Shown: positions 2,316 through 27,291 of the stretch, one piece after another
Numbering within the stretch: the first letter of the stretch is position 1
Layout of the letters: the number at the start of each line of letters is the position of its first letter
Source of the DNA: an uncultured archaeon
GTDB lineage: Archaea > Iainarchaeota > Iainarchaeia > Iainarchaeales > CSSED10-239
Reading direction: 5' to 3'
Assembly (NCBI GenBank): GCA_964496765.1
Contig: CAZCAP010000009.1
Coordinates: forward strand, 2,741 to 30,347
DNA: 27,607 bases
The notes under the pieces: model-generated
What the model was told of the DNA's origin: nothing
What the model saw: only the letters and a program-made list of their open reading frames with translations
The model's database searches: none
Position numbers and translations under genes: made by a program

Positions 2316-3107
2316 TTACTTTTTACGAGAAAATAATCTTTTTAGGAAACCAAATAGTCCTCCACTTGATTTCTTTGAAGATTCTCCTTCTTTTCCTGTT
2401 ATTTTTTTTGCTATTGCTCTGAATGAATTTGCTGATGGGCCTTTGGGAGCATGAATTAATAGTGGTTTGATTTTCTTAAGAAGAAATGATTCCCTAATAT
2501 CTTCTGCATATGGAATCTTGCCATAGCAGGGAAGTTCTAGCATTTTCATTATTTCCTTTTCAGAGATTTCTCCAGAAATGTTACTTACCTTATTAATTAC
2601 AATTCCAAGAACTTTTAGATTTAATCTCTCTGCAACAATCTTCACCTTGAAAACATCTGCAACCGATGGAGAGGTTGGTTCAGTAATTAATAAGATTTGT
2701 GTTGATGATGACATTGCAGCTATTACGTTTTTATCAATACCTGCGGGTGCGTCTATTAAAATATAATCATATTGATTATATAAACTTTTTACTACTGAAA
2801 CTAATCTTTCAACATCTACTCTTTGATAGGTTGAGATAGATAATCCAGAAGGAATAATTTTCAAATTACCTGGGCCATCATAGGTTGCATCTCCTACTGA
2901 TGAAGAACCTAACAGAACATCATGCAAGGTTATTGGCGGGTTATCAACACCAATAAGTAAACTTAAATTTGACATTGCAATGTCCGCATCTATCAAAAGC
3001 ACAGAATGACCCTGTTCAGCTAATGCAAGTCCTAGATTTGCAGTTAATGTGGTTTTACCTACTCCACCTTTTCCAGAAACGATTGTAATTATTTCACTCA
3101 TAATCAT
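2316..3107 (-). CDS. minD: MinD/ParA-family P-loop ATPase (archaeal MinD-like)
   Basis: Deviant Walker A motif IVSGKGGVGKTTLTANLGLALAEQGHSVLLIDADIAMSNL. Walker B-like motif YDYILIDAPAG. The basic, amphipathic C-terminal tail (GGLFGFLKRLFSRKK) is typical of membrane-targeting MinD tails. Confidence 0.9.
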   Translation of the reverse strand: MIMSEIITIVSGKGGVGKTTLTANLGLALAEQGHSVLLIDADIAMSNLSLLIGVDNPPITLHDVLLGSSSVGDATYDGPGNLKIIPSGLSISTYQRVDVERLVSVVKSLYNQYDYILIDAPAGIDKNVIAAMSSSTQILLITEPTSPSVADVFKVKIVAERLNLKVLGIVINKVSNISGEISEKEIMKMLELPCYGKIPYAEDIRESFLLKKIKPLLIHAPKGPSANSFRAIAKKITGKEGESSKKSSGGLFGFLKRLFSRKK

Positions 3108-3127
3108 TCACATTTTATTTTAATTAA

Positions 3128-3574
3128 TTAAATTATTTGAGACATTATCTTTAAATAATTTTCAAGATCATTTACAAGTGCTTGAACTTCAATTCTTGAT
3201 AAACTATCATTTGCTTTAATAAAATATACCTTATCATTTAATTTAAAAATTATTTGCCATCCTTTTGATTCAATTAATATTATTGAAAGATTATTGAATT
3301 CACTATTAATATAATTGTACATGGCTGCACTTTTAAAACCTTCTTTTAAATCCTTTTCAGTACTTCCAATTACAATTCCAGTCACATCAGTAACTACAAT
3401 ATGATTAACTAAATGCTTCTGCCTTAGTTTTAATAGAAAATCATCTAGATTTTTTGAATTCAAATTTATTTTTTTGTATTCCAATAGAGATGATAGGCCA
3501 GCAGTATCTGATGTATCTTCTAGGTTTAAAACCCTGTTGGATAACCTTGTTAATAATCTTGTTATAGTTTGCAT
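3128..3574 (-). CDS. Hypothetical protein, Roadblock/LC7 (MglB-like) fold suspected
   Basis: 148 aa. The pattern LLKLRQKHLVNHIVVTDVTGIVIGSTEKD...AAMYNYI...LSIILIESKGWQIIF matches the general Roadblock/LC7 profile (helix, then 'hhhhD-x-x-G-hhhhs', helix, two strands). This is pattern recognition only. The gene is the 20-nt-spaced upstream neighbour of minD. Confidence 0.4.
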   Translation of the reverse strand: MQTITRLLTRLSNRVLNLEDTSDTAGLSSLLEYKKINLNSKNLDDFLLKLRQKHLVNHIVVTDVTGIVIGSTEKDLKEGFKSAAMYNYINSEFNNLSIILIESKGWQIIFKLNDKVYFIKANDSLSRIEVQALVNDLENYLKIMSQII

Positions 3575-3598
3575 AATAAATCTTTTTTTAATTTTTAA

Positions 3599-4105
3599 TT
3601 ACTCTTTTAATAAGTCAGAAATGTGAAATCTATTAAACACATCTATTTTTGATTCCTGCACTTCTATTTTATTACTTAATAATTTATCTAATAACGTCTC
3701 ATTATATTTAATATTTAGTTTAGCTATTGAACCATTATCTATTTTATAATCAAATTTAACTTTATCATTAAAAATTAATATTAATTTTATTTGATCATCA
3801 GTTAAATTATAGATGTTTAATAATCCATCTTTATTTCCATAGGAATTTATTCCTAGATTAAATGCATCTAATCCAAATAACTCAACATCATAGGCATCAA
3901 TTAAAAATATTGAACCAACAACCTTTCCTTTTGTAAAAATAATTATACTTTCTTCAAAACCATACTTTCCATTAACAGCTAGATAGGTGTATCCTGAGAA
4001 CTTTTTTGTTCCTAAATCCAAAAATAATTTATCTGGAATTAATTGTTCCAGAAAAACATTTTTCACCAAAGGAGTGGTCACTGGTATATTCATAGTTTTA
4101 TTCAA
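3599..4105 (-). CDS. Hypothetical protein, PATAN/DUF4388-like N-terminal domain suspected
   Basis: 168 aa. The stretch LFLDLGTKKFSGYTYLAVNGKYGFEESIIIFTKGKVVGSIFLIDAYDVELFGLDAFNLGIN resembles the DUF4388/PATAN signature (tG-x-L-x-h ... i-x-f-x-x-G-k-hh-x-a ... G-x-dA). Same strand and operon-like spacing as the Roadblock-like and MinD genes. Confidence 0.35.
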   Translation of the reverse strand: MNKTMNIPVTTPLVKNVFLEQLIPDKLFLDLGTKKFSGYTYLAVNGKYGFEESIIIFTKGKVVGSIFLIDAYDVELFGLDAFNLGINSYGNKDGLLNIYNLTDDQIKLILIFNDKVKFDYKIDNGSIAKLNIKYNETLLDKLLSNKIEVQESKIDVFNRFHISDLLKE

Positions 4106-4114
4106 CTCTTATAT

Positions 4115-4588
4115 CTATCTTAATTTATCAATGAAGACAACCTGATCAACTGTATTCTTAAGAGCTGTTGCAGAACCTTCTTCAACTAAAAACACCATTG
4201 TTTTTTTACCATGGGTTTTTGCTTTTAAAATTGCAGGCAAGTAATCTGAATCACGTGTTACAAAAACAATTGTATCAATTTCTTTGTTGTGGACTATATC
4301 TGTTGCATCAACTGCCATTGCAACATCCACATCACCAACAGTAATTACTGTTTCAAAGCCAATGTTAACAACTGCTTCCACAAGTTTATCAGTAGCGTAT
4401 TGATCAAGAAAAACTTTTGCAACCTTAATGGCACCCTGTGATTTTAAATAATTCTTAATCTTTGAAAGATCAATATTAAATTCTTTTCTTAGAATATTTG
4501 GACCATCAACAAATATTGCAATATTGTTTCTTCTTGCGATTTTTGGAGCACTATCTTTATTGATAAATAAACGTAATAATTTATTCAT
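4115..4588 (-). CDS. NYN-domain (LabA/DUF88-like) putative ribonuclease
   Basis: 157 aa. IAIFVDGPNILRKEF...VGDVDVAMAVDATDIV...IDTIVFVTRDSDYLPAILKAK reproduces the NYN acidic residue layout (D near the N-terminus, DVD, SDSD/RDSD). Confidence 0.7.
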   Translation of the reverse strand: MNKLLRLFINKDSAPKIARRNNIAIFVDGPNILRKEFNIDLSKIKNYLKSQGAIKVAKVFLDQYATDKLVEAVVNIGFETVITVGDVDVAMAVDATDIVHNKEIDTIVFVTRDSDYLPAILKAKTHGKKTMVFLVEEGSATALKNTVDQVVFIDKLR

Positions 4589-4767
4589 AATTTATTCCTT
4601 CTTTTCAATTATATACAGCCTAATGAACTGCTATAAACTTTTTAACTTATCCCTCAAAAATATATTTGAAAGGAGTGAGTTTGATTTCTACAATCGAAAT
4701 CATAAGTAAAATATATATTATATTTAATTAAAATGATTTATAAAGGTATCTTAATTTATATAATATT

Positions 4768-5847
4768 ATGGGTACCAAACAAGTATTTTCTAGACCTTTT
4801 AATCTAGTTTATGAAAAAGATTATCCAAACCTATTACTTGGGCCTGGGATATATGCAGATTATCTTAATGCTAAATATTCATCTCCTAAGGATTGGGTAA
4901 AGTCAGATATTAAAAAAATTGATGAAAATAGGAATAAACAAATTTTTTCTTTTGAAAAATACACTAAAGAGGATGCACTTCTTCCAACCAGAGAATTATC
5001 TGAGCTTCAGTTAATTACCCAAAGTACAAAAACAACTGAACTTGAAATCACCTTGGGAACTGGAGAACGAAAAGTCATAGACAACGTTTCAGGAATAAAC
5101 AATCCATTCTTTGATATTGAAAATCTTAGGATTGTTGAAAATATACAAGTTCCAAAAGCCATTGATAGGGTTGTTTCAGACAATTCCCTCCCAGCAACAA
5201 CAGGAATGATATCACTTTACAAAAAATTAGATGATGTTTATAAAATAGAACAATTATTATCTGTGGGGCTGCTTGGAAATAAAAACAAAAGATCACTTGT
5301 TCCAACTAGATGGGCAATAACAGCTGTTGATGACACTCTTTCAAAGGACATTATTGAAGATATAAAACATAATCAAACAATTGATAAATATGAATTGTAT
5401 ACCTTTGAATTTTATAAAAATAAATTCTATATAATTATTATGCCTCTTCCATGGTCATTTGAAATGATTGAATCAAAAGGATCTGGTGAATTTTCAATAG
5501 ACTTTGAACACTATGAAGGTAGACGTGATTATGCGTCATCTGTTACAGGAGCCTACTACGCAGCAAGGTTAGAGATAACTAAACAGCTAAGTGAAAGAAA
5601 AAGATGTGGGAGAATACTTATATTAAGAGATATTGATGTTAGCTATCAATCTAAGGGGGTATGGGTAATAAGAGAAGCAGTAGCAGAAGCAATGCAAAAA
5701 AAACCATTTGTTTTTGAGACCATAGACTTACTCCTAAAGTACGTTGATGAAGAATTAAAGATTAAAGGAACCATTAAATATTGGACTGATAAGTCAACAA
5801 TCCTGAAGGAAAATAAAATGCAAAGAAGGTTGTTTGAGTTCATTTAA
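4768..5847 (+). CDS. Nre-family (archaeal DNA-repair associated, Nre_N/Nre_C) protein, lacking the usual N-terminal Cys-rich segment
   Basis: 359 aa. The motifs DYPNLLLGP, SPKDW and especially SLVPTRWAITAVDD match my recollection of archaeal Nre proteins. This assignment is memory-based and needs an HMM check. Confidence 0.45.
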   Translation: MGTKQVFSRPFNLVYEKDYPNLLLGPGIYADYLNAKYSSPKDWVKSDIKKIDENRNKQIFSFEKYTKEDALLPTRELSELQLITQSTKTTELEITLGTGERKVIDNVSGINNPFFDIENLRIVENIQVPKAIDRVVSDNSLPATTGMISLYKKLDDVYKIEQLLSVGLLGNKNKRSLVPTRWAITAVDDTLSKDIIEDIKHNQTIDKYELYTFEFYKNKFYIIIMPLPWSFEMIESKGSGEFSIDFEHYEGRRDYASSVTGAYYAARLEITKQLSERKRCGRILILRDIDVSYQSKGVWVIREAVAEAMQKKPFVFETIDLLLKYVDEELKIKGTIKYWTDKSTILKENKMQRRLFEFI

Positions 5848-19172: not shown

Positions 19173-19733
19173 ATGATTAAAACAGTTATTTGGGATATTG
19201 GGGGGGTAATATTATCAGATATTGATGTGCCTGGTTTTTGGAAGGACATTATTGCGTCCAAGCAACTAAGAAAAGATTTTGGGACAAACAAAATAACTCA
19301 AAACGAATTTATTAATCAAGGATCCAAACTACTATTAATAGATGAAGACGAATTTTTAAGAAACTATAAAAAAGTGTACTCTGATATTAAGCCAATTAAA
19401 GAAACGTATGAGCTTTACAAAAATATGAAAACAGCAAAATATATACTCACAGACACAAATCTCATACACGCTGAATTTGTATCCGAAACTTTCCCAGATA
19501 TATTTAAATTAGCTAAGAAATGTTACTTATCAAATGAAATTGGCATGAGAAAAGACTGTATTGATGTTTTTCAATATGTAGTTAAAGACCTAGAATTATT
19601 ACCTAGTGAAATATTATTCATTGACAATAAAGAAAAAGCAACAAATATTGCTAGAGAAGCAGGACTTAACGCTATCCATTACAAGAGCCCAGAAAAATTG
19701 AAAGAAGAATTAGAAAAGTTAAATGTAAAATAA
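19173..19733 (+). CDS. HAD-superfamily hydrolase (subfamily IA-like)
   Basis: 186 aa. Motif I is VIWDIGGVIL (D-x-G-G-V variant), motif II ILTDTN, and motif IV LFIDNKEKATNIAREAGLNAIHY. Confidence 0.8.
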   Translation: MIKTVIWDIGGVILSDIDVPGFWKDIIASKQLRKDFGTNKITQNEFINQGSKLLLIDEDEFLRNYKKVYSDIKPIKETYELYKNMKTAKYILTDTNLIHAEFVSETFPDIFKLAKKCYLSNEIGMRKDCIDVFQYVVKDLELLPSEILFIDNKEKATNIAREAGLNAIHYKSPEKLKEELEKLNVK

Positions 19734-19734
19734 A
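19696..19734. repeat. Direct repeat copy A (39 bp, perfect) covering the last 11 codons and stop of the HAD gene
   Basis: AATTGAAAGAAGAATTAGAAAAGTTAAATGTAAAATAAA is identical to 20558-20596. Similarity extends upstream (CAAGAGC at 19682-19688 vs 20551-20557), with 7 extra nt in copy A. Confidence 0.9.
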
Positions 19735-19752: not shown

Positions 19753-20118
19753 TTATTTCCTCTTGAAACCAAATAAATCATTATATTTATCATGATCTCC
19801 ATATTCAAGAACAAAGCAAATAATCTGAATCTCATTTGTTTGAATATTATATATTAATCTCCAAAAATTAGAAAGATTAATTATCCAAAGATTTGTTATT
19901 CCCCTTTTTTGATATTTAGATGGAATTAATGATTTTTTAACAATTCTTCCTGCTTCTGGATTAACTTTTAAAAGCTCTATTTTTTGCGTTATTGAATTAA
20001 GTAGAGTCTGATTTCTGCTCTTCTTAATCCCTTTACTGATTTCATCTTCAACTATTTTGGTTAGCTTAAGATATTCATCTTTAGCTTCTCCTTCAAATAT
20101 CACTTTCACTTCTTTCAT
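19753..20118 (-). CDS. ParE/RelE-superfamily toxin-like protein
   Basis: 121 aa. The layout IFEGEAKDEYLKL...IELLKVNPEAGRIVK...LWIINLSNFWRLIYNIQTNEIQIICFVLEYGDHDKY follows the ParE/RelE pattern (helical hairpin, then G-x-x-h, then h-W-R-h-h-Y-x-h ... h-x-h-h-x-h-x-x-H). It overlaps the upstream gene by 4 nt (ATGA). Confidence 0.55.
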   Translation of the reverse strand: MKEVKVIFEGEAKDEYLKLTKIVEDEISKGIKKSRNQTLLNSITQKIELLKVNPEAGRIVKKSLIPSKYQKRGITNLWIINLSNFWRLIYNIQTNEIQIICFVLEYGDHDKYNDLFGFKRK

Positions 20119-20378
20119 ACTTCTAGACCCTTCTTTATCCTTTCTTTTAATTCATTCTTTGGTTGATAGGTCCAGATAATCCCTTTTTTACTATCATAGA
20201 TAATCCCTCTATCATCAAGATAATCAACTACAACATTTAATGTTTGTTTCATTACTTTGTTTTTTAATTTTTTGATTATCTTGTATCTTGTTAAAGGAAG
20301 ATCTGATTGTTTTATAATATTTTCAACCTCAAGAACTGTTTTTAGGTTAGGGTAATGAAGAATGTTTTTTTGTTTCAT
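20115..20378 (-). CDS. Small winged-helix-like protein, putative antitoxin/regulator of the ParE/RelE-like gene
   Basis: The track ORF starts at 20417. The ATG at 20378 is preferred because GAGGT lies 7 nt upstream and TATAAATATA further upstream (87 aa: MKQKNILHYPNLKTVLEVENIIKQSDLPLTRYKIIKKLKNKVMKQTLNVVVDYLDDRGIIYDSKKG...). Helix-turn-helix-wing pattern. It is translationally coupled to the toxin-like gene. Confidence 0.5.
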   Translation of the reverse strand: MKQKNILHYPNLKTVLEVENIIKQSDLPLTRYKIIKKLKNKVMKQTLNVVVDYLDDRGIIYDSKKGIIWTYQPKNELKERIKKGLEV

Positions 20379-20460
20379 AATATTAACCTCATAGGTGATA
20401 TATTTATACCCTAACATATTAAAACCTTTTCTATTATAGGTATATTATTACTTGGAAGGA

Positions 20461-20502
20461 TATATCCTTTTCGGGAGGGTAGCTGTCCAAGCAAAATTAG
20501 GT
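20461..20502. repeat. 42-bp repeat, copy 1
   Basis: TATATCCTTTTCGGGAGGGTAGCTGTCCAAGCAAAATTAGGT is 40/42 identical to 22079-22120. It is relatively GC-rich and contains a CCnTTTCGGG mini-hairpin. It lies upstream (5') of the minus-strand antitoxin-like gene. Confidence 0.9.
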
Positions 20503-20557
20503 CTTTCTTTAGATAGCAAGATTTGGATTAATATAATACAGGATATCAATCAAGAGC

Positions 20558-20596
20558 AATTGAAAGAAGAATTAGAAAAGTTAAATGTAAAATAAA
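20558..20596. repeat. Direct repeat copy B (39 bp, perfect) of the HAD gene 3' end
   Basis: Identical to 19696-19734. Its last 16 nt form, in antisense, the final codons and stop (..FYI*) of the 167-aa gene at 20581..21084. Confidence 0.9.
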
Positions 20597-21108: not shown

Positions 21109-21149
21109 TATATCCCTTTTGGGAGACTACTTTCAATCCAAACAGATTA
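21109..21149. repeat. 42-bp repeat family, degenerate copy 2
   Basis: In TATATCCCTTTTGGGAGACTACTTTCAATCCAAACAGATTA the first 17 nt match copies 1 and 3 at 15/17 each, and the remainder is only loosely alignable. On the minus strand its end reads GGGATATAAAC, centred about 26 nt upstream of the ATG at 21084. Confidence 0.6.
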
Positions 21150-22043
21150 TTTCCCCTTTAAATTATCAAGTATCTTTAAATTATCTTTTTCTAGTTTTGC
21201 AAATCCAAACCATTTCTTTCCAAGATCTTTTATTGATGCTCCAAAATGATAAATTTCTTTATTATCAACAATTAGAAATCTATCATGTGACTTCTTGAAC
21301 TTCTTAATATCTATTGGATTTGAACTATATTGTAAATTAGATTTATCTATATCCAGTTTTAATTGATTGGTTATATTTTCAGTATAGATTGTAACTCTTA
21401 CGTTCTTATTTACTTTTGTAAATAAGGTTAAAACAGAATCATCAATGTAATTATCTATTAAAATTATTGATTTTTTTGCATTTCTGATAATATTAGATAT
21501 GAACCTATGCGCATCAAACACTTGACCATCATAAAATATTCCTTGCTTTTTAATTATGTCCTTACTTTCTATTGCATCAAAAACTTTTTTGAAATTGTTG
21601 TCTGTACTTATTTGATATTCAAGTTGCTTTCTTTCAACTGAATCTAATCTTATAAATATTTCTGTGTTCTTTGAAATGAATCGTCTCATTGAAACAAATG
21701 CATTAATTATTTGAATACTTATATTTACTGCTGTTTTTGTTTTTAGGACACCAGAAAGCATTGCAACCCCTTGTTCAGTAAAAACATAGGGAGAGGTTCC
21801 ACCTAGATGCCTTTTTGAAGGTATCGCATTTTGCGATACCATAAAATCAATTTCCGCAAAATTTAATTGAAACATAAATTCGTTTGGAAATCTTGTAATA
21901 TTCCTTTTTACTTGTTCACGCAAACGAATAGCCTTTATTTTATACAATTTAGCTAAATCACTATCAAGCATTACTTGAACTTCTCTAATAGTGTATATCT
22001 TATACCCAATATTTTCATTAATAATTAAAATATCCTTAGCCAC
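21147..22043 (-). CDS. ORF6N (KilA-N-related) DNA-binding domain protein with C-terminal HKD/PLD-like motif
   Basis: 298 aa. N-terminus IREVQVMLDSDLAKLYKIKAIRLREQVKRNITRFPNEFMFQL is the ORF6N signature. The C-terminus SHDRFLIVDNKEIYHFGASIKDLGKKWFGF resembles HxK(x)4D...G-S with K replaced by R. GTG start with GGTGA 5 nt upstream. Confidence 0.8.
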   Translation of the reverse strand: MAKDILIINENIGYKIYTIREVQVMLDSDLAKLYKIKAIRLREQVKRNITRFPNEFMFQLNFAEIDFMVSQNAIPSKRHLGGTSPYVFTEQGVAMLSGVLKTKTAVNISIQIINAFVSMRRFISKNTEIFIRLDSVERKQLEYQISTDNNFKKVFDAIESKDIIKKQGIFYDGQVFDAHRFISNIIRNAKKSIILIDNYIDDSVLTLFTKVNKNVRVTIYTENITNQLKLDIDKSNLQYSSNPIDIKKFKKSHDRFLIVDNKEIYHFGASIKDLGKKWFGFAKLEKDNLKILDNLKGK

Positions 22044-22078: not shown

Positions 22079-22120
22079 TATATCCCTTTCGGGGGGGTAG
22101 CTGTCCAAGCAAAATTAGGT
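22079..22120. repeat. 42-bp repeat, copy 3 (tRNA-proximal)
   Basis: TATATCCCTTTCGGGGGGGTAGCTGTCCAAGCAAAATTAGGT lies 67 nt from the 3' end of tRNA-Ser and 35 nt upstream of the ORF6N gene start. Confidence 0.9.
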
Positions 22121-22187
22121 TTGTTTTTCCTACCTCTAGGTTCTATTTTCTTTCCCTAGGGTTTCGTTCTTTAGAAAGAAAGGCTCA

Positions 22188-22273
22188 CGCAGAGGATGAG
22201 ATTCGAACTCATGGATGGGGTTACCATCACTTGTTTTCGAGACAAGCACCTTCAACCACTCGGCCACCTCTGC
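22188..22273 (-). tRNA. tRNA-Ser (anticodon CGA)
   Basis: The minus strand reads GCAGAGGTGGCCGAGTGGTTGAAGGTGCTTGTCTCGAAAACAAGTGATGGTAACCCCATCCATGAGTTCGAATCTCATCCTCTGCG (86 nt). It folds by hand: acceptor GCAGAGG/CCTCTGC, anticodon stem CTTGT/ACAAG with loop CTCGAAA, long variable arm GATGG/CCATC, T-arm ATGAG-TTCGAAT-CTCAT, discriminator G. No encoded CCA. Confidence 0.9.
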
Positions 22274-22281
22274 ACAACCGC

Positions 22282-22300: not shown

Positions 22301-22364
22301 ATAACATGTTAACAAACACATAGTTAACAAACGAATACATATATTATGTAAGAATAAGATTATA

Positions 22365-22661
22365 TTACTTTACTAGCGAGGCTCTGTTGATCACAGAAAG
22401 AAGATTTGAAACTAAGCTTTTTGCTGCATCCTCATCAGTTAAATCCTTAACTATTATCTTCAATGATGAGAAAATAGTCATCTCTCCTTCCTTTATCTTA
22501 ACATGTATGTAAAAAGGAGAGTTATCCTTTGAAATGTAATAGCCATTCTTTGTTAAATAGTTCATTAGATCCTTAACATCTATCTTTTTATTCCTTTTTG
22601 GATAGAACTCAAATCCAGGTGTTACCTTACATGAATCTAAAATAAAATCAGATAATTCCAT
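22365..22661 (-). CDS. Small protein resembling a single TBP-type repeat (helix-grip/TBP-like fold suspected)
   Basis: 98 aa, starting 20 nt after the HerA-like stop. IDVKDLMNYLTKNGYYISKDNSPFYIHVKIKEGEMTIFSSLKIIVKDLTDEDAAKSLVSNLLSVI aligns by eye with the TBP repeat of this same window (LDLYNLAAAIPDVEYEPEQFPGAIFKIKEPKVSLLLFKNGKIIISGAASEKDIVAGIRKAMKLI). Confidence 0.55.
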   Translation of the reverse strand: MELSDFILDSCKVTPGFEFYPKRNKKIDVKDLMNYLTKNGYYISKDNSPFYIHVKIKEGEMTIFSSLKIIVKDLTDEDAAKSLVSNLLSVINRASLVK

Positions 22662-22681: not shown

Positions 22682-25417
22682 TTATACATCTTGACCAAGA
22701 ACACCATCAATTAATATTGTTCTTTCTTCATGCCCATCCTTACTAACAAGAGTAATATGCCAGATAGGCCAATAAACCTCATCAAGAGAAATAAACTCAA
22801 CCTCTCCAAATAACTTCTTTAGGTTTTCTTCAACTAGCTTTGGAGAATAGGTTATATTCTCAATAAACTCAATCTCTAGCTTTCTTAAAGCTAGATCACT
22901 AACTGATGTCATTAGTTTATGGAAAACATTGAAAGGAACATCAAACTTTGCTGATGTTTTATAAAATTCTTTCTTACTTTTTTCAGAAACTGAAAGAAGA
23001 TTGCTTTTCTTTAATGTTTCTATTCTATTTTTAACTAGAGATAACTCAAGATCTAGTTCTCTTGCAATTGATTCAATTGTTTGGTTTCCCTTTGAAATAA
23101 AAAGAATGTCTAGATCAATCTCATCTAAACCATTAACTAGATTAAATCCTTTTGATTCTCTAAACTTATCTCCTAGGAAATGTAAAAACTCACCAGTTAC
23201 TGAGTCTATGTAGCAGGCTGCTCTTTTGAAATCTCCTTCTGGATTAAAAACATTGAAATTAAATTTATAGATGGTTCTGTATTTTAGAACTATGTTTTTA
23301 ATGTATTCCTTTGGAGAGAAGATAATAAATGATTTCTTTGTTGATGATCTTGCAATTTCTTCAATTCTTTCTCTTTTTATTCTTAGAGGAAAGGTTTGAT
23401 GTACTTTAACTCTTGAAATTAGGTTAGTTTTATCTATTGCTAGATCATTTTCTATTTCCTCAAAGGATTCTTCTTTGTCCTTTGGTTCTAATTGTTTTAA
23501 TGTTTCTTTTAGTTCTTGAACACCAGGTTCAATAAAATCTAAATATAATACTTCTTTTTTAAGTATTACTTTCTTTTCAAATAGTTTTTCTAGAACTTCA
23601 TCAAACTCTATGTTTGATCTGTATTTTATGTTAACTACTTCTAGAATATCCTTAGCAAAAGAAACTCTTAGTTCTTTTGCTTTTTCTAGTTTTTTAAAGA
23701 TCATTGTTGTTGCTATTGTTAGGACTTGAGAGTTGTTTAGTTTTTTTATATCTCTTATTGTTTCTGCATCTCTTCCTTCATGTTGTGATTTTCTTGGAGC
23801 TGCTCTCATAATGAATGCTCTTGATGTTTCCTCTGATCTATCTCCAACTAGAGCTGTTGCAAAAGGTATTGTTTTTATGAAGTTTGGATCTTTGTATTGA
23901 TCAGGTATGATTGCTGGCATTCTTTTTTGAATAGCTGAAATATCATCATTGAAAACTAGTTTGTTTGAAATTAATATGTCTACTTGGGATAATACTTTTG
24001 TGTTAATTGCTGATGGTTGTTGGGTTGCAAAAACAAGTGAACAACCAGGCCTTCTTCCTTGCTTTACGTATTCAATAATACCAGCTGTTGCTGGTGTTAA
24101 TGAGTTTCCTGATGGTATTAGGGTGTGTGCTTCATCTATGTACAACCAGGTAGGAGGAATTTCAGTTTCAAGTAACTCATCTGCTCCTTGGCCTTCTTTG
24201 TTTTCTATTTTCTTGCTTGCACTTTCTCTTGCTGCTATTTTTCTTGCTGATAATAGTCTTCTTGCTAGAATACCAATAACTAGTGCTGTTATGTTTTCAT
24301 CTAGGAAAGATGTATCAAGAACAGTTAACTGGTTTTCCCTTGATAGCTTAGATAGGGTTGTTCCATGATCTGAGAAGATACCCCATGATTTAGCTGCATC
24401 AAATCTAGAAACAAGAGCTCTAATAGTGTCTGGTTTGTATCCTTTCTTTTGAGATACAAACTCTGAATTAGTTGATAAACAATCAATAATGTTATCTAAA
24501 GTGAATTGATTTCCTTTTGGTTTTATTTTTTTGAAATCATCTCCTTCCTTTCCTGTTCCAGCTGTGTATCCTTTTTTAACAAACTCAATTGTTTTTTCAA
24601 GCAATAATCCAGATGGAGAGAATCTTTCAATTCCAAAAGTAATACACCAGTCCTCTGGTGTTAATAAAGATGAATACATTGAGAAAGTATCATCATAGGT
24701 GTCTTTTGATACTTTATCTGCTACTCCTTCAGGAACAAAAACTTTTAGGTTTTTTATTCCTTCTGGTTTTTGGTTCCATTCTTCTAATATTTTAATTTCT
24801 TTTGCTTCTTTGTTTTCATATTTCATTGACCAAAAAACACCAACAGGATCAATAACTATTTGTCCTATGTATGGATTATTTCTAGCTAGTTCTTCAGCAA
24901 TAACTCCAAGTAAATAACTTTTTCCTGTTCCTCTTGCACCATCAAGGAACACAACATGTGGATTAAGCCCATCTAAATATACTTCTTTATCTTTTTCTTG
25001 ATCTTCAGCTACCCTTCCAATAAGAGCAAGCCCTTTATTACCATATTGCTTTTGAACAGACTTCTTTCTTCCTATGTACACTTTGTTTGGGTTTTCAGGA
25101 TCACTAAGGAACTTGAGAAGAGGTTTTATTTCCTTAATAGGTAATGGAGTTGATGCTATTGGTTTAGGTTCAGGTTCAAGCTTAGGTTTAGGTTCTTGCT
25201 TAATCTTTTCATCATTCTCTGCTTTTTCCTTTGGTTCAGGTTTAGGTTTTGGAGTAGGGACATAAGCAGATATTGTAATTGGGGTAGAAGCAGGGATAGA
25301 GGTAGGAACAGGTGCCTGGTCAGACAAATCAGCAGGAATAGGTTTTTCATCCTCTTCCATGATTTTAAAGAAGTCATCCTCCTTCTCTTCATCCTTTTTA
25401 TATTTTTCAACAGACAT
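22682..25417 (-). CDS. HerA/FtsK-superfamily (DUF87-type) ATPase with disordered N-terminus and C-terminal extension containing a winged helix
   Basis: 911 aa. Walker A is VVFLDGARGTGKSYLLG and Walker B is WLYIDEAHTLIP. The DUF87/HerA signature GRRPGCSLVFATQQPSAINTKVLSQVDILISNKLV is present. Residues about 30-95 are Pro/Lys/Glu-rich low complexity. The last ~350 aa include a wHTH-like segment (NQTIESIARELDLELSLVKNRIETLKKSNLLS). Confidence 0.85.
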   Translation of the reverse strand: MSVEKYKKDEEKEDDFFKIMEEDEKPIPADLSDQAPVPTSIPASTPITISAYVPTPKPKPEPKEKAENDEKIKQEPKPKLEPEPKPIASTPLPIKEIKPLLKFLSDPENPNKVYIGRKKSVQKQYGNKGLALIGRVAEDQEKDKEVYLDGLNPHVVFLDGARGTGKSYLLGVIAEELARNNPYIGQIVIDPVGVFWSMKYENKEAKEIKILEEWNQKPEGIKNLKVFVPEGVADKVSKDTYDDTFSMYSSLLTPEDWCITFGIERFSPSGLLLEKTIEFVKKGYTAGTGKEGDDFKKIKPKGNQFTLDNIIDCLSTNSEFVSQKKGYKPDTIRALVSRFDAAKSWGIFSDHGTTLSKLSRENQLTVLDTSFLDENITALVIGILARRLLSARKIAARESASKKIENKEGQGADELLETEIPPTWLYIDEAHTLIPSGNSLTPATAGIIEYVKQGRRPGCSLVFATQQPSAINTKVLSQVDILISNKLVFNDDISAIQKRMPAIIPDQYKDPNFIKTIPFATALVGDRSEETSRAFIMRAAPRKSQHEGRDAETIRDIKKLNNSQVLTIATTMIFKKLEKAKELRVSFAKDILEVVNIKYRSNIEFDEVLEKLFEKKVILKKEVLYLDFIEPGVQELKETLKQLEPKDKEESFEEIENDLAIDKTNLISRVKVHQTFPLRIKRERIEEIARSSTKKSFIIFSPKEYIKNIVLKYRTIYKFNFNVFNPEGDFKRAACYIDSVTGEFLHFLGDKFRESKGFNLVNGLDEIDLDILFISKGNQTIESIARELDLELSLVKNRIETLKKSNLLSVSEKSKKEFYKTSAKFDVPFNVFHKLMTSVSDLALRKLEIEFIENITYSPKLVEENLKKLFGEVEFISLDEVYWPIWHITLVSKDGHEERTILIDGVLGQDV
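25133..25330 (-). repeat. Low-complexity coding repeat (Pro/Lys/Glu-rich) within the HerA-like gene
   Basis: The plus strand shows imperfect GGTTTAGGTTCA-type iterations encoding PKPKPEPKEKAENDEKIKQEPKPKLEPEPKP. This region produces the spurious alternative-frame track ORFs 25074..25265, 25156..25410 and 25196..25450. Confidence 0.7.
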
Positions 25418-25522
25418 AAGTATCAGGTTATATTCATTAATATCTCATAGTATATATAATAAAAAAAGATATATAAAGGTATGGAATTAGAAGAGAAAAA
25501 GTGAAAATTTAAATTTTGAATA

Positions 25523-26584
25523 TTAATTAACATTATCTGAGGCATTTGTTTTTTTACCTAAAAGCACCTTATCCAGTAATCTCTTTGTTAATGGATCATT
25601 AAAAAAATCTTCAAATGTGAAACATTCATAAAAATGCTCAAGCAGTTCTTTGAATCTTTCTATTTCTTTGTTAAGGCCAAATGAAAAATTAAATTGAAGC
25701 TCTTCTAAATTTAAATTGTTTTTAATATAGTATTCCCTTATTGTTGTTTTGTAGTTATTAATCGCCATAATGTCCCAAAAAGTACCAAACAATTCAAAAT
25801 ATATATTTCTTATCTTATAATCTAACTTTGTTTTATCTAATCTTTCAAAATATATTAAAAAATCATGATAATCATCAGTTATTTTACTTAATTCTTTTGA
25901 ATAGGGTTTATATTCAGTAAATTTTTCGAAATTATCAACTAAATACTTTGTATTCCATTTTAGTAGGTTTTCAAGCATCTCATCTTTTAGTCTATAAAGC
26001 TTATTGAAATCAGAATTTCCTGATTCATATTGTTTTTTTCTAATTTGTTTTGATGAAAGAACAACATTCTCATTTATTAAATCATAAATTTGCTTGTCTG
26101 ATAATATAGTTGAAAACTCCGTATTTTTTATTGATAATTCAATATAATTTATACTTGGATCATATGCAACTGGAACAATTTGCCCATACTTATACCACAC
26201 AACTGGTAATCCCAAACTTAATTTATTGTTTATTTCAACAAGTTGCTTTTGCATTTGTGTTTTAGTTGGTTTTCTTCCTGTTGCCTTAAACCAATAATCC
26301 TCTATTTTGGAGAAAAGATAATTTATCATATCTCTATGTTCTTTCTTGATATTTAGATTAAAATAAATATCTGATTTTTTGTTTGTGAAATTACAAAATA
26401 TATCAGATATTGCATATTTATTATCATCCATTGAAAGAATTTTATCTTTTGCTAGACTTAGAACTATTCTTTTAACAGTTTCTTTATGGATACCTGTATC
26501 TTCTGAAATCTTATCAATCGTAGTCCAAGAATTAGTTGTGATATATAATATCACCTTATTTACATTATCTAGTCCCATCTCCAC
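25523..26584 (-). CDS. Winged-helix DNA-binding protein with large uncharacterised helical C-terminal region
   Basis: 353 aa. The track start is GTG, and the ATG at 26578 with GAGGA upstream is more likely. N-terminal wHTH: ILYITTNSWTTIDKISEDTGIHKETVKRIVLSLAKDKILS. The remainder has no recognisable family. Confidence 0.65.
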   Translation of the reverse strand: MEMGLDNVNKVILYITTNSWTTIDKISEDTGIHKETVKRIVLSLAKDKILSMDDNKYAISDIFCNFTNKKSDIYFNLNIKKEHRDMINYLFSKIEDYWFKATGRKPTKTQMQKQLVEINNKLSLGLPVVWYKYGQIVPVAYDPSINYIELSIKNTEFSTILSDKQIYDLINENVVLSSKQIRKKQYESGNSDFNKLYRLKDEMLENLLKWNTKYLVDNFEKFTEYKPYSKELSKITDDYHDFLIYFERLDKTKLDYKIRNIYFELFGTFWDIMAINNYKTTIREYYIKNNLNLEELQFNFSFGLNKEIERFKELLEHFYECFTFEDFFNDPLTKRLLDKVLLGKKTNASDNVN

Positions 26585-26718
26585 ACATCCTCAGACATAA
26601 TATATACACCTACAAGTATATAAATGTATCATTATATAATTACATATAAATATAAAAGTGTGTTAAATAGCCGAAATATTTAAATATAAGGTATGTAGTA
26701 TTATATGTGGTGAACGAT

Positions 26719-27291
26719 ATGTCAGACTCAATAAATATAATCAGAAAAATAATACAAAAGGAAGAAGAAATTGTACTGGACACAAATTTTTACATATTTA
26801 ACTATGAGTATCAGATGAATCTATACAATGCATTTGATCTTAAGGCAACAAACAAACTAAAACTCGTTACCAAGGTATTTATGTACCTTGAGGAAAAAGA
26901 GATAAAGGTAAGATTACCAAAAATAATAGCAGATGAAATAAAGAAGGTATTCTCAGATAATAAATACCAATATTCTGAAGAAATTATTTTTGGAAGGTTA
27001 AATATAATAAGAGACAAAAAAGAGATTGATTTGGAAGATAATAAAATAGTGAACAAGTTATTCAACGAAAACAAACTAGCTTATGAAGATACAAACGATT
27101 TTAGGATTTACTTGTATTGCTTAAGAGAGCAATTAAAATTAATAGTAACAGATGATTGGGATGATTTTAAGAATTGCCAGAAGATATACAGAAAAGAAGT
27201 AAAAACAGATACAACTAAACAACAAGAGATTAGTATATTAAGCCAAACTGAATTCAATGAATATATAGAAAAGATTGAAGAAAAGAAATAA
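26719..27291 (+). CDS. PIN-like domain protein (putative nuclease)
   Basis: The track start 26707 is GTG. The ATG at 26719 has GGTGA 5 nt upstream. The acidic residue series EIVLDTNFYIF ... IADEIKK ... TNDFRIYLY ... LIVTDDWDDF fits the PIN D-E-D-D layout. Pattern-level call. Confidence 0.45.
   Translation: MSDSINIIRKIIQKEEEIVLDTNFYIFNYEYQMNLYNAFDLKATNKLKLVTKVFMYLEEKEIKVRLPKIIADEIKKVFSDNKYQYSEEIIFGRLNIIRDKKEIDLEDNKIVNKLFNENKLAYEDTNDFRIYLYCLREQLKLIVTDDWDDFKNCQKIYRKEVKTDTTKQQEISILSQTEFNEYIEKIEEKK

Follow-up and report, generated by a model that had tools for sequence, protein, structure and literature searches.

A HerA-clade ATPase with its own predicted DNA-binding domains and a linked TBP-domain gene: a candidate chromosome-maintenance motor of the Iainarchaeota

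To our knowledge, FtsK is absent from archaea, and for most of them little is understood of how chromosomes are moved, resolved or cleared. A stretch of 27,607 nt from an uncultured archaeon of the Iainarchaeota lineage (contig CAZCAP010000009.1; referred to here as the window) carries a gene at positions 22682-25417 which codes for an outsized HerA-like ATPase of 911 aa. Is this a defence or mobile-element motor, as its location beside a tRNA gene and accessory cassettes had suggested in an earlier sequence-only reading, or does it serve the chromosome that carries it? We argue that it is a vertically inherited chromosomal core gene across one DPANN phylum (Iainarchaeota/Diapherotrites). Its product is an intact HerA-clade ATPase with its own predicted DNA-binding domains. 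With moderate confidence, we favour a role as a lineage-specific ring translocase of double-stranded DNA (dsDNA) in chromosome maintenance, which would be aided by its own winged helices and by a partner protein with a TATA-binding protein (TBP) domain. The features of the ATPase gene are as follows:

22682-25417, minus strand: complete gene for the HerA-like ATPase, 911 aa (open reading frame (ORF); DUF87 match; at least 562 homologues; AlphaFold2 (AF2) model)
25133-25417, minus strand: intrinsically disordered N-terminal region (residues 1-95), rich in Pro, Lys and Glu, of varying length among homologues (predicted local distance difference test (pLDDT) <50 for residues 1-89; composition; homologues of 800-1100 aa)
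25352-25381, minus strand: conserved N-terminal short linear motif EDDFFKIMEE (family consensus acidic-x-F-acidic-x-hydrophobic)
23753-25132, minus strand: short N-terminal beta subdomain and HerA-clade RecA-like ATPase core with helical insertion (residues 96-555; pLDDT about 85-95; Foldseek HerA matches with probability 1.0; about 150 invariant positions)
24917-24940, minus strand: Walker A P-loop GARGTGKS (residues 160-167; invariant G160, R162, G163, G165, K166 and S167; intein site (K|S) in some homologues)
24125-24142, minus strand: Walker B YIDEAH (residues 426-431; invariant D428, E429, A430 and H431)
23534-23752, minus strand: winged-helix-like domain 1 (residues 556-628; predicted H-H-H-beta-beta topology with pLDDT about 76-94 as sole basis; no Pfam match)
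23408-23533, minus strand: acidic disordered linker (residues 629-670; pLDDT 35-39; pI 4.4)
23147-23407, minus strand: PepSY-like domain 1, ending ...CYIDSVTGE (residues 671-757; pLDDT 96 in the C-terminal module; hhalign match to domain 2, 89%)
22928-23146, minus strand: winged helix-turn-helix (wHTH) domain 2, MarR/ArsR/TrmB/BlaI-like (residues 758-830; Pfam in homologues, profile-versus-PDB and Foldseek; weak in the window copy)
22685-22927, minus strand: PepSY-like domain 2, ending ...ILIDGVLGQ (residues 831-911; PF03413 in homologues; hhalign match to domain 1)
25451-25477, minus strand: AT-rich TATA-like elements 5' of the ATPase start codon, a putative archaeal promoter (read by eye)

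The core of the protein is that of HerA. Residues 133-387 match Pfam family DUF87, which is the central domain of HerA (E 2.7e-11), and an alignment of 78 full-length homologues shows a very strongly conserved core in which Walker A, Walker B and the ATQQPS sensor strand are invariant. The AF2 model, which was built from this alignment, has a mean pLDDT of 81.5 and is confident throughout except for residues 1-89 and 629-670, where the values are below 50. When this model was compared to the PDB with Foldseek, the top ranks were occupied by HerA only (E 3e-18 to 2e-16, TMt 0.53-0.61, identity 12-18%), with HerA-NurA from T. kodakarensis (9x1m, E 3e-18) and S. solfataricus HerA (4d2i, TMt 0.60) followed by defence-associated and Deinococcus HerAs. 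Ahead of the P-loop, the AF2 model has only about 45 structured residues, among them three short strands. A HAS barrel is not matched by Pfam in the window ATPase at E<=0.01, nor does it figure in the family lists of three homologues (E<=1). There is no transmembrane segment or membrane anchor in the ATPase, the highest 19-residue Kyte-Doolittle mean being 1.32, inside the ATPase core. No paralogues were encountered in the fetched homologue neighbourhoods.

The C-terminal extension begins with a winged-helix-like unit (residues 562-626) that is visible in predicted secondary structure only. Beyond the acidic linker, residues 668-911 constitute one compact module, since this block, when modelled alone, reaches pLDDT 96 and a predicted TM-score (pTM) of 0.90. 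The centre of this module (about residues 758-830) is a classical wHTH: TrmB and HTH_27 are above Pfam cut-offs in ATPase homologues, a profile search of the PDB with the module brings up MecI/BlaI, HlyU, MarR, AdcR and Lrs14 (E 1e-5 to 2e-3), and Foldseek matches SmtB, CzrA and MarR proteins. The two modules at its flanks (668-757 and 831-911) are homologous at the profile level (hhalign probability 89%, E 2.3e-6) and represent a true internal duplication. They are PepSY-like, with Pfam PepSY (PF03413) found at E<=0.01 in 7/23 family members (best E 3.2e-9) and above the gathering cut-off in homologue P0108. A TBP-like nature of these two beta-rich domains was also considered and is ruled out, with an hhalign probability of 0.2% against the partner family described below. 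When residues 555-911 were searched against 1.84 billion representative proteins, just 68 matches were obtained, all of them at C-termini. The ten longer ones that were scanned carry DUF87 without exception, and the named proteins are labelled Diapherotrites or 'archaeon'. To judge from this search, the C-terminal module is confined to the HerA-like ATPase family among these proteins. It evolves faster than the ATPase core.

At the other end, residues 1-95 contain 18 Pro, 16 Lys or Arg and 21 Asp or Glu. An acidic-Phe motif is located near the N-terminus, preceding the disordered arm, in most homologues. A strict regular expression for the consensus is positive in 66/76 homologues, and the other ten, the window copy among them, mostly have looser variants. 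The motif reads EDDFFKIM in the window copy, commonly DLFDEVFG, and DPFEKIE in one clade. It is a candidate docking peptide. The domain layout proposed by the sequence-only reading is borne out by these results: a HerA/DUF87 protein with intact motifs, about 95 N-terminal residues of low complexity, a wHTH-like segment in the C-terminal part and two beta modules ending in the same signature.

The distribution of the gene speaks to its origin. Hundreds of full-length relatives (coverage 89-100%, identity 42-87%, 800-1100 aa) are found under names such as 'ATP-binding protein' or 'DUF87 domain-containing protein', in entries labelled 'archaeon' or Diapherotrites. When each GTDB species was scanned with one genome, at least 275 genomes proved to encode a relative. 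The carriers are nearly all labelled Candidatus Iainarchaeum, ainarchaeum, Forterrea or unclassified 'archaeon', apart from one that is labelled Micrarchaeota and a few bins whose labels are evidently wrong. Two of the carriers are Ca. Iainarchaeum andersonii and Ca. Forterrea multitransposorum, the latter with a complete genome of 839 kb. The DNA of the window is ordinary archaeal chromosome, with genes for TBP, L21e, DUF655, KsgA, AglB, Nre, thioredoxin, BacA and an AMP/thymidine-phosphorylase-like protein. It contains a block of genes (YdjM-BacA-thioredoxin-PYNP-KsgA-DUF655) which recurs in Forterrea and on an 813-kb contig, in both cases at a distance of a few kb downstream of the orthologue. 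In a distant Iainarchaeum-type clade, the ATPase gene is followed by a convergent GlmU-like/PGM/GlmS block (25 loci).

Four ATPase homologues, from several lineages, are interrupted by inteins at an identical Walker A site (GARGSGK|C...HN|S), and the intein sequences differ. Intein_splicing and LAGLIDADG_3 domains are found in the intein-bearing homologues, which include L092:3066-7517, P0118, P0178 and P0191; the last has a clearly different, longer intein and no N-terminal disordered arm. Placement of an intein in the P-loop is typical of essential nucleic-acid enzymes. No phage match to the ATPase was obtained by tblastn, a scan of viral contigs returned a single 38-residue fragment, and among plasmids tblastn found one distant match only and none to the full architecture. 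Because of the spread over at least 275 species, the synteny, the lack of phage matches and the Walker A inteins, we consider the gene a core gene rather than defence or mobile cargo. The defence or mobile-element role proposed earlier is thus not upheld, and the gene also has no effector neighbours.

Dedicated screens gave the same picture. The HerA models of PADLOC and NCBIfam align only partially to the ATPase, over the Walker B/sensor half, and PADLOC detects no defence effector beside the gene. The antiphage HerA models NF042943 and NF042944 yield partial alignments with 32.5 and 27.8 bits, compared to cut-offs of 850 and 800. Genes for Sir2, DUF4297, nucleases or secretion do not recur near the ATPase gene, neither in the homologue neighbourhoods nor upon neighbourhood clustering of 80 species loci. 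A defence or mobile origin as the primary reading was rejected on the combined results of PADLOC, NCBIfam, the viral-contig scan, the phage and plasmid tblastn searches and the 80-locus clustering.

There is a subtler form of this idea, namely that the ATPase is a fixed anti-invader capture translocase with fast-evolving wHTH sensors, which would intercept foreign DNA in the way proposed for Dnd/BRC-type systems and is now phylum-wide. It would fit the faster evolution of the C-terminal module, the match to PADLOC model mad8 over nearly the whole profile (E 2.6e-16) and the accessory island with a PDC-S05 gene that adjoins the gene in the window. It would also fit the closest relative of the core outside the family, a short DUF87 ATPase of 389 aa (30% identity, E 1e-45), which is encoded on a plasmid of Haloplanus sp. 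HW8-1 (NZ_CP098519.1, 109107-124255). That gene adjoins genes for a 380-aa PglZ-like protein, a BREX ATP-binding-domain (BrxC-like) protein, a GNAT protein and a QueF-like protein, a context which resembles the recently described BREX-related capture system BRC (PMC12839542). Still, across about 90 loci the family has no nuclease or other effector and no ORC/Cdc6-like or STAND protein as neighbour, it occupies a syntenic chromosomal position in at least 275 species, its scores against the antiphage HerA models are far too low, and the window's accessory island was inserted separately, relatives being without it. We thus regard a capture function as rather improbable. The ATPase core may well share ancestry with conflict-system motors, though the family context is not of the conflict type.

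If not defence, is this simply the end-resection HerA of the lineage? The ATPase might be a functional but highly diverged version of that enzyme, with the nuclease partner and Mre11/Rad50 encoded elsewhere, and with the wHTH and TBP modules in place of HAS-barrel coupling. The best structural matches (9x1m and 4d2i) are NurA-associated archaeal HerAs, and both the housekeeping-like conservation and the P-loop inteins would suit such a function, as would the homologous recombination reported at the population level for Ca. Forterrea (PMC5905446). On the other side, the canonical HerA equivalogs of NCBIfam (NF040819 and NF040937) score 29.6 and 26.1 bits, far below their cut-offs of 970 and 800, and the HAS barrel is undetected. 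NurA, Mre11 and Rad50 domains are absent from all window ORFs scanned, as had been stated from the sequence alone, and also from the Pfam-annotated homologue neighbourhoods that were inspected; a conserved cluster of nuclease-like neighbours is lacking among the 80 loci. The orthologues are broadly distributed, syntenic core genes, but they are not located beside nurA, mre11 or rad50. We consider an end-resection function possible but unlikely.

HerA/VirB4-type ATPases power archaeal DNA transfer, and many DPANN archaea depend on other cells. It is therefore conceivable that the ATPase imports or exports DNA between a DPANN cell and its host or environment, in the manner of Ced/Ted, VirB4 or conjugation systems, and weak TrwB_AAD_bind matches are seen in short family members. 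The lack of a transmembrane segment in the ATPase, the lack of conserved membrane, pilus or channel genes nearby and the lack of plasmid or virus homologues with the full architecture make such a role highly unlikely.

A clue to the function comes from the gene next to that of the ATPase:

22365-22661, minus strand: 98-aa monopartite TBP-domain protein, probable partner (20 nt downstream of the ATPase gene, same strand; profile homology and linkage)

The 20-nt spacer holds a GGT and is consistent with co-transcription. Pfam TBP is found in 17/29 members of the 98-aa protein family (best E 9.3e-6). When the family profile was compared to the PDB, 25 of the 28 matches at E<=10 were TATA-binding proteins (best E 7e-6), and an extended hidden Markov model (HMM) of the family detects the window's own two-domain TBP (E 8.5e-6). 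The 98-aa protein is, by profile homology, a single complete TBP domain. We detected 154 members of this family (90-123 aa), which have the same phyletic range as the ATPase and carry an N-terminal extension with an invariant Cys and an invariant Glu.

The partner gene is immediately downstream of the ATPase gene and on the same strand in 21/80 species loci. These are all close-clade loci except L013, together with three loci that have two other partner subtypes. In at least nine more loci, it is located 1.5-6 kb downstream, usually just past the GlmU-like/PGM/GlmS block, which is inserted between the two genes in opposite orientation. Its other neighbours vary (ThiI-like, wHTH/S-layer-C, methyltransferase, DUF6206), and proximity to the ATPase gene is the only recurring theme. 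This suggests that the ATPase and the TBP-domain gene formed an ancestral two-gene operon. The sequence-only reading had suggested testing a longer neighbourhood for conservation, with a wHTH and a PIN gene besides the 98-aa gene; the wHTH and PIN genes are not conserved.

Some of the alternative neighbours deserve mention. In L041, L091 and L092, a ThiI/PP-loop-like gene of about 212 codons is found just upstream of the TBP-domain gene (L041:11497-12135, L091:9376-10014, L092:8601-9236); in L041 and L091, the two genes overlap by 14 nt. In combination with the invariant Cys of the partner, this hints that there may be a sulfur-transfer connection. ThiI was considered as an alternative partner association; it is restricted to these three loci and the others differ, so that there is no consistent alternative. 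In several Iainarchaeum-type genomes, the gene immediately upstream of the TBP-domain gene codes for a conserved protein of 317-321 aa with an N-terminal wHTH (L042:11069-12022, L048:6555-7508, L053:12299-13252). Pfam results are recorded for the L008 copy alone (L008:11802-12767), with HTH_20/TrmB and an S_layer_C region; in L008, the partner gene itself was not found.

The linkage to a TBP-domain gene might also indicate a chromatin or transcription remodeller, which would load, move or strip TBP-domain or other DNA-bending proteins and would be an analogue of Mot1-TBP with an unrelated motor. The wHTH is of the MarR/TFE/TrmB class, and the acidic-Phe motif at the N-terminus resembles acidic peptides that bind TBP-fold surfaces. 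However, we know of no HerA-clade ATPase that acts as a chromatin or transcription remodeller, the linkage is not universal, and the physical interaction would be a putative one. We consider this explanation very unlikely.

How would the favoured reading, a dsDNA translocase in chromosome maintenance, work? The ATPase would assemble as a ring and move along dsDNA using ATP. Each subunit would bear its DNA-binding apparatus on a flexible acidic tether, in the order of a winged-helix-like domain and then the PepSY-like/wHTH/PepSY-like module. Taken together, the ATPase and its partner are counted to have three kinds of dsDNA-binding module (the wHTH domains and the TBP domain). The tethered wHTH modules and the TBP-domain protein may recruit the ring to DNA or orient it there. 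The partner, perhaps as a dimeric saddle, could bind or bend DNA or cap the ring, the way NurA or defence effectors cap other HerA rings, and the disordered N-terminus with its acidic-Phe motif would be a candidate docking arm. The process served would be a housekeeping one rather than immunity, for example segregation or clearance of DNA at division, or the processing of recombination or replication intermediates. A sequence-guided DNA translocase built on a HerA core, which had been proposed from the outset, remains the best mechanistic reading; the accompanying analogy to FtsK turns out to be superficial, there being no membrane anchor and no FtsK_SpoIIIE match at threshold.

In a bolder version, the ATPase would be the dedicated chromosome-handling motor of the Iainarchaeota and a soluble counterpart of FtsK in archaea. 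Twelve tethered winged helices in each ring would guide it, together with a homodimeric saddle of single TBP domains. This version is improbable in our view. If true, it would provide the first functional context for monopartite TBP-domain proteins and an example of a TBP-fold protein coupled to a DNA pump.

Several points weigh against a chromosome-maintenance translocase. Its presumed oligomeric state and its translocation along DNA are read from about 15% identity and a fold similarity to HerA. The HAS barrel, which mediates partner binding in known HerA complexes, is undetected, and the wHTH in the window's own copy of the ATPase stays below Pfam cut-offs. Outside the family, the core is most closely related to the Haloplanus plasmid ATPase, whose locus is of a defence (BRC-like) type. 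The absence of NurA, Mre11 and Rad50 holds for the window and the neighbourhoods inspected. The partner gene is missing from the 6 kb fetched downstream of the ATPase gene in the close relative L013, is non-adjacent in most distant-clade loci and sometimes adjoins ThiI-like or wHTH/S-layer genes instead. Because the partner is non-adjacent in many loci and is sometimes found beside other genes, the linkage could reflect inherited synteny without a functional tie.

The region that separates the ATPase/partner pair from the YdjM block in the window contains accessory genes: tRNA-Ser(cga), an ORF6N/PDC-S05 gene, a gene for a 167-aa protein, a ParE-like pair, a HAD hydrolase gene and a gene for a secreted protein of 320 aa. 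In all relatives examined, this region is different. Direct repeats of 50 nt (90% identical, 20461-20510 and 22079-22128) bracket the gene for the 167-aa protein and the ORF6N gene (21147-22043), which matches the PADLOC candidate defence family PDC-S05 (E 1e-113) and adjoins tRNA-Ser(cga) (22187-22274). This unit looks like a small integrated cassette. A second direct repeat of 44 nt (95% identical, 19691-19734 and 20553-20596) copies the 3' end of the HAD-hydrolase gene and brackets a ParE-like toxin gene (19753-20118) and its upstream 100-aa partner (20115-20417), which overlap by 4 nt. It looks as if a toxin-antitoxin cassette had been inserted here and its target duplicated. The tRNA gene and the accessory cassettes, whose vicinity the sequence-only reading had found compatible with a defence or mobile-element function, are local insertions that are separate from the ATPase gene.

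Upstream of the ATPase gene, a 353-aa protein (25523-26584) has weak N-terminal wHTH-type matches only, and a 194-aa protein (26707-27291), which had been read as a PIN protein, has no Pfam match; neither is conserved beside ATPase orthologues. A tandem 15-mer (GTTAACAAACACATA / GTTAACAAACGAATA) is found at 22308-22337, between the TBP-domain gene and tRNA-Ser; it might serve as a promoter element for the tRNA gene or as a site for binding. Potentially relevant chromosome and repair genes are encoded at 2316-5847: a ParA/MinD-type ATPase (2316-3107), an NYN-domain protein (4115-4588) and the archaeal Nre (4768-5847). They are 17-23 kb from the ATPase gene and unlinked to it.

DPANN archaea retain a minimal gene set. 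Because a large, conserved, intein-hosting motor is kept across a phylum with minimal genomes, the ATPase is likely to be important to the DNA of these organisms. The ATPase and TBP-domain genes represent a concrete two-gene system for archaeal chromosome biology that is apparently undescribed, and the linkage gives a first indication of what monopartite TBP-domain proteins may do. The locus is also a caution that a non-canonical HerA beside a tRNA gene need not be a defence gene. In the literature, we found no description of a HerA-like ATPase family with winged helices, PepSY-like domains and a TBP-domain partner, and no report that ties monopartite TBP-domain proteins to a HerA-type ATPase.

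The ATPase resembles a HerA/FtsK-superfamily translocase in its predicted way of working but fits none of the canonical HerA, FtsK and defence HerA families. With archaeal HerA (4d2i, 9x1m), it shares the RecA-like ASCE core, the helical insertion, the Walker A/B and sensor motifs and DUF87. It is only about 15% identical, though, nearly twice as long and devoid of a detectable HAS barrel. It is extended by a disordered N-terminus as well as by two winged helices and two PepSY-like domains, and it has no NurA/Mre11/Rad50 neighbours.

With FtsK/SpoIIIE, the ATPase has an overall logic in common: an arm that is flexible and of low complexity, a predicted ring ATPase belonging to the FtsK-HerA superfamily and, at the C-terminus, a winged helix that might serve to read DNA. 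The ATPase differs in having no membrane domain and a core of the HerA clade, and its wHTH, compared to the gamma domain, is a MarR/ArsR/TrmB-class domain with a PepSY-like domain on either side. PF01580 (FtsK_SpoIIIE) has no match in the window ATPase and reaches 13-17 bits in homologues (cut-off 24), and FtsK_gamma is unlisted in both Pfam scans (window ATPase and homologues). Defence HerA/FtsK translocases (Sir2-HerA/Nezha, DUF4297-HerA, TdpAB, DndH and BRC [PMC12839542]) have the same core fold and likewise combine a motor with a variable wHTH. In contrast to them, the ATPase is without effector or sensor partners and is phylum-wide, syntenic and vertically inherited.

The partner has its counterparts in the monopartite TBP-domain proteins that Brindefalk et al. 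(2013; PMC3597702) described from Thermococcales and Halobacteria, and to which no function had been assigned. These are alike in having about 90-120 aa and one TBP domain, and the 98-aa protein is, like them, distinct from the organism's own two-domain TBP. It differs from them in being of DPANN origin, in its N-terminal extension with invariant Cys and Glu, and in its linkage to a HerA-like ATPase.

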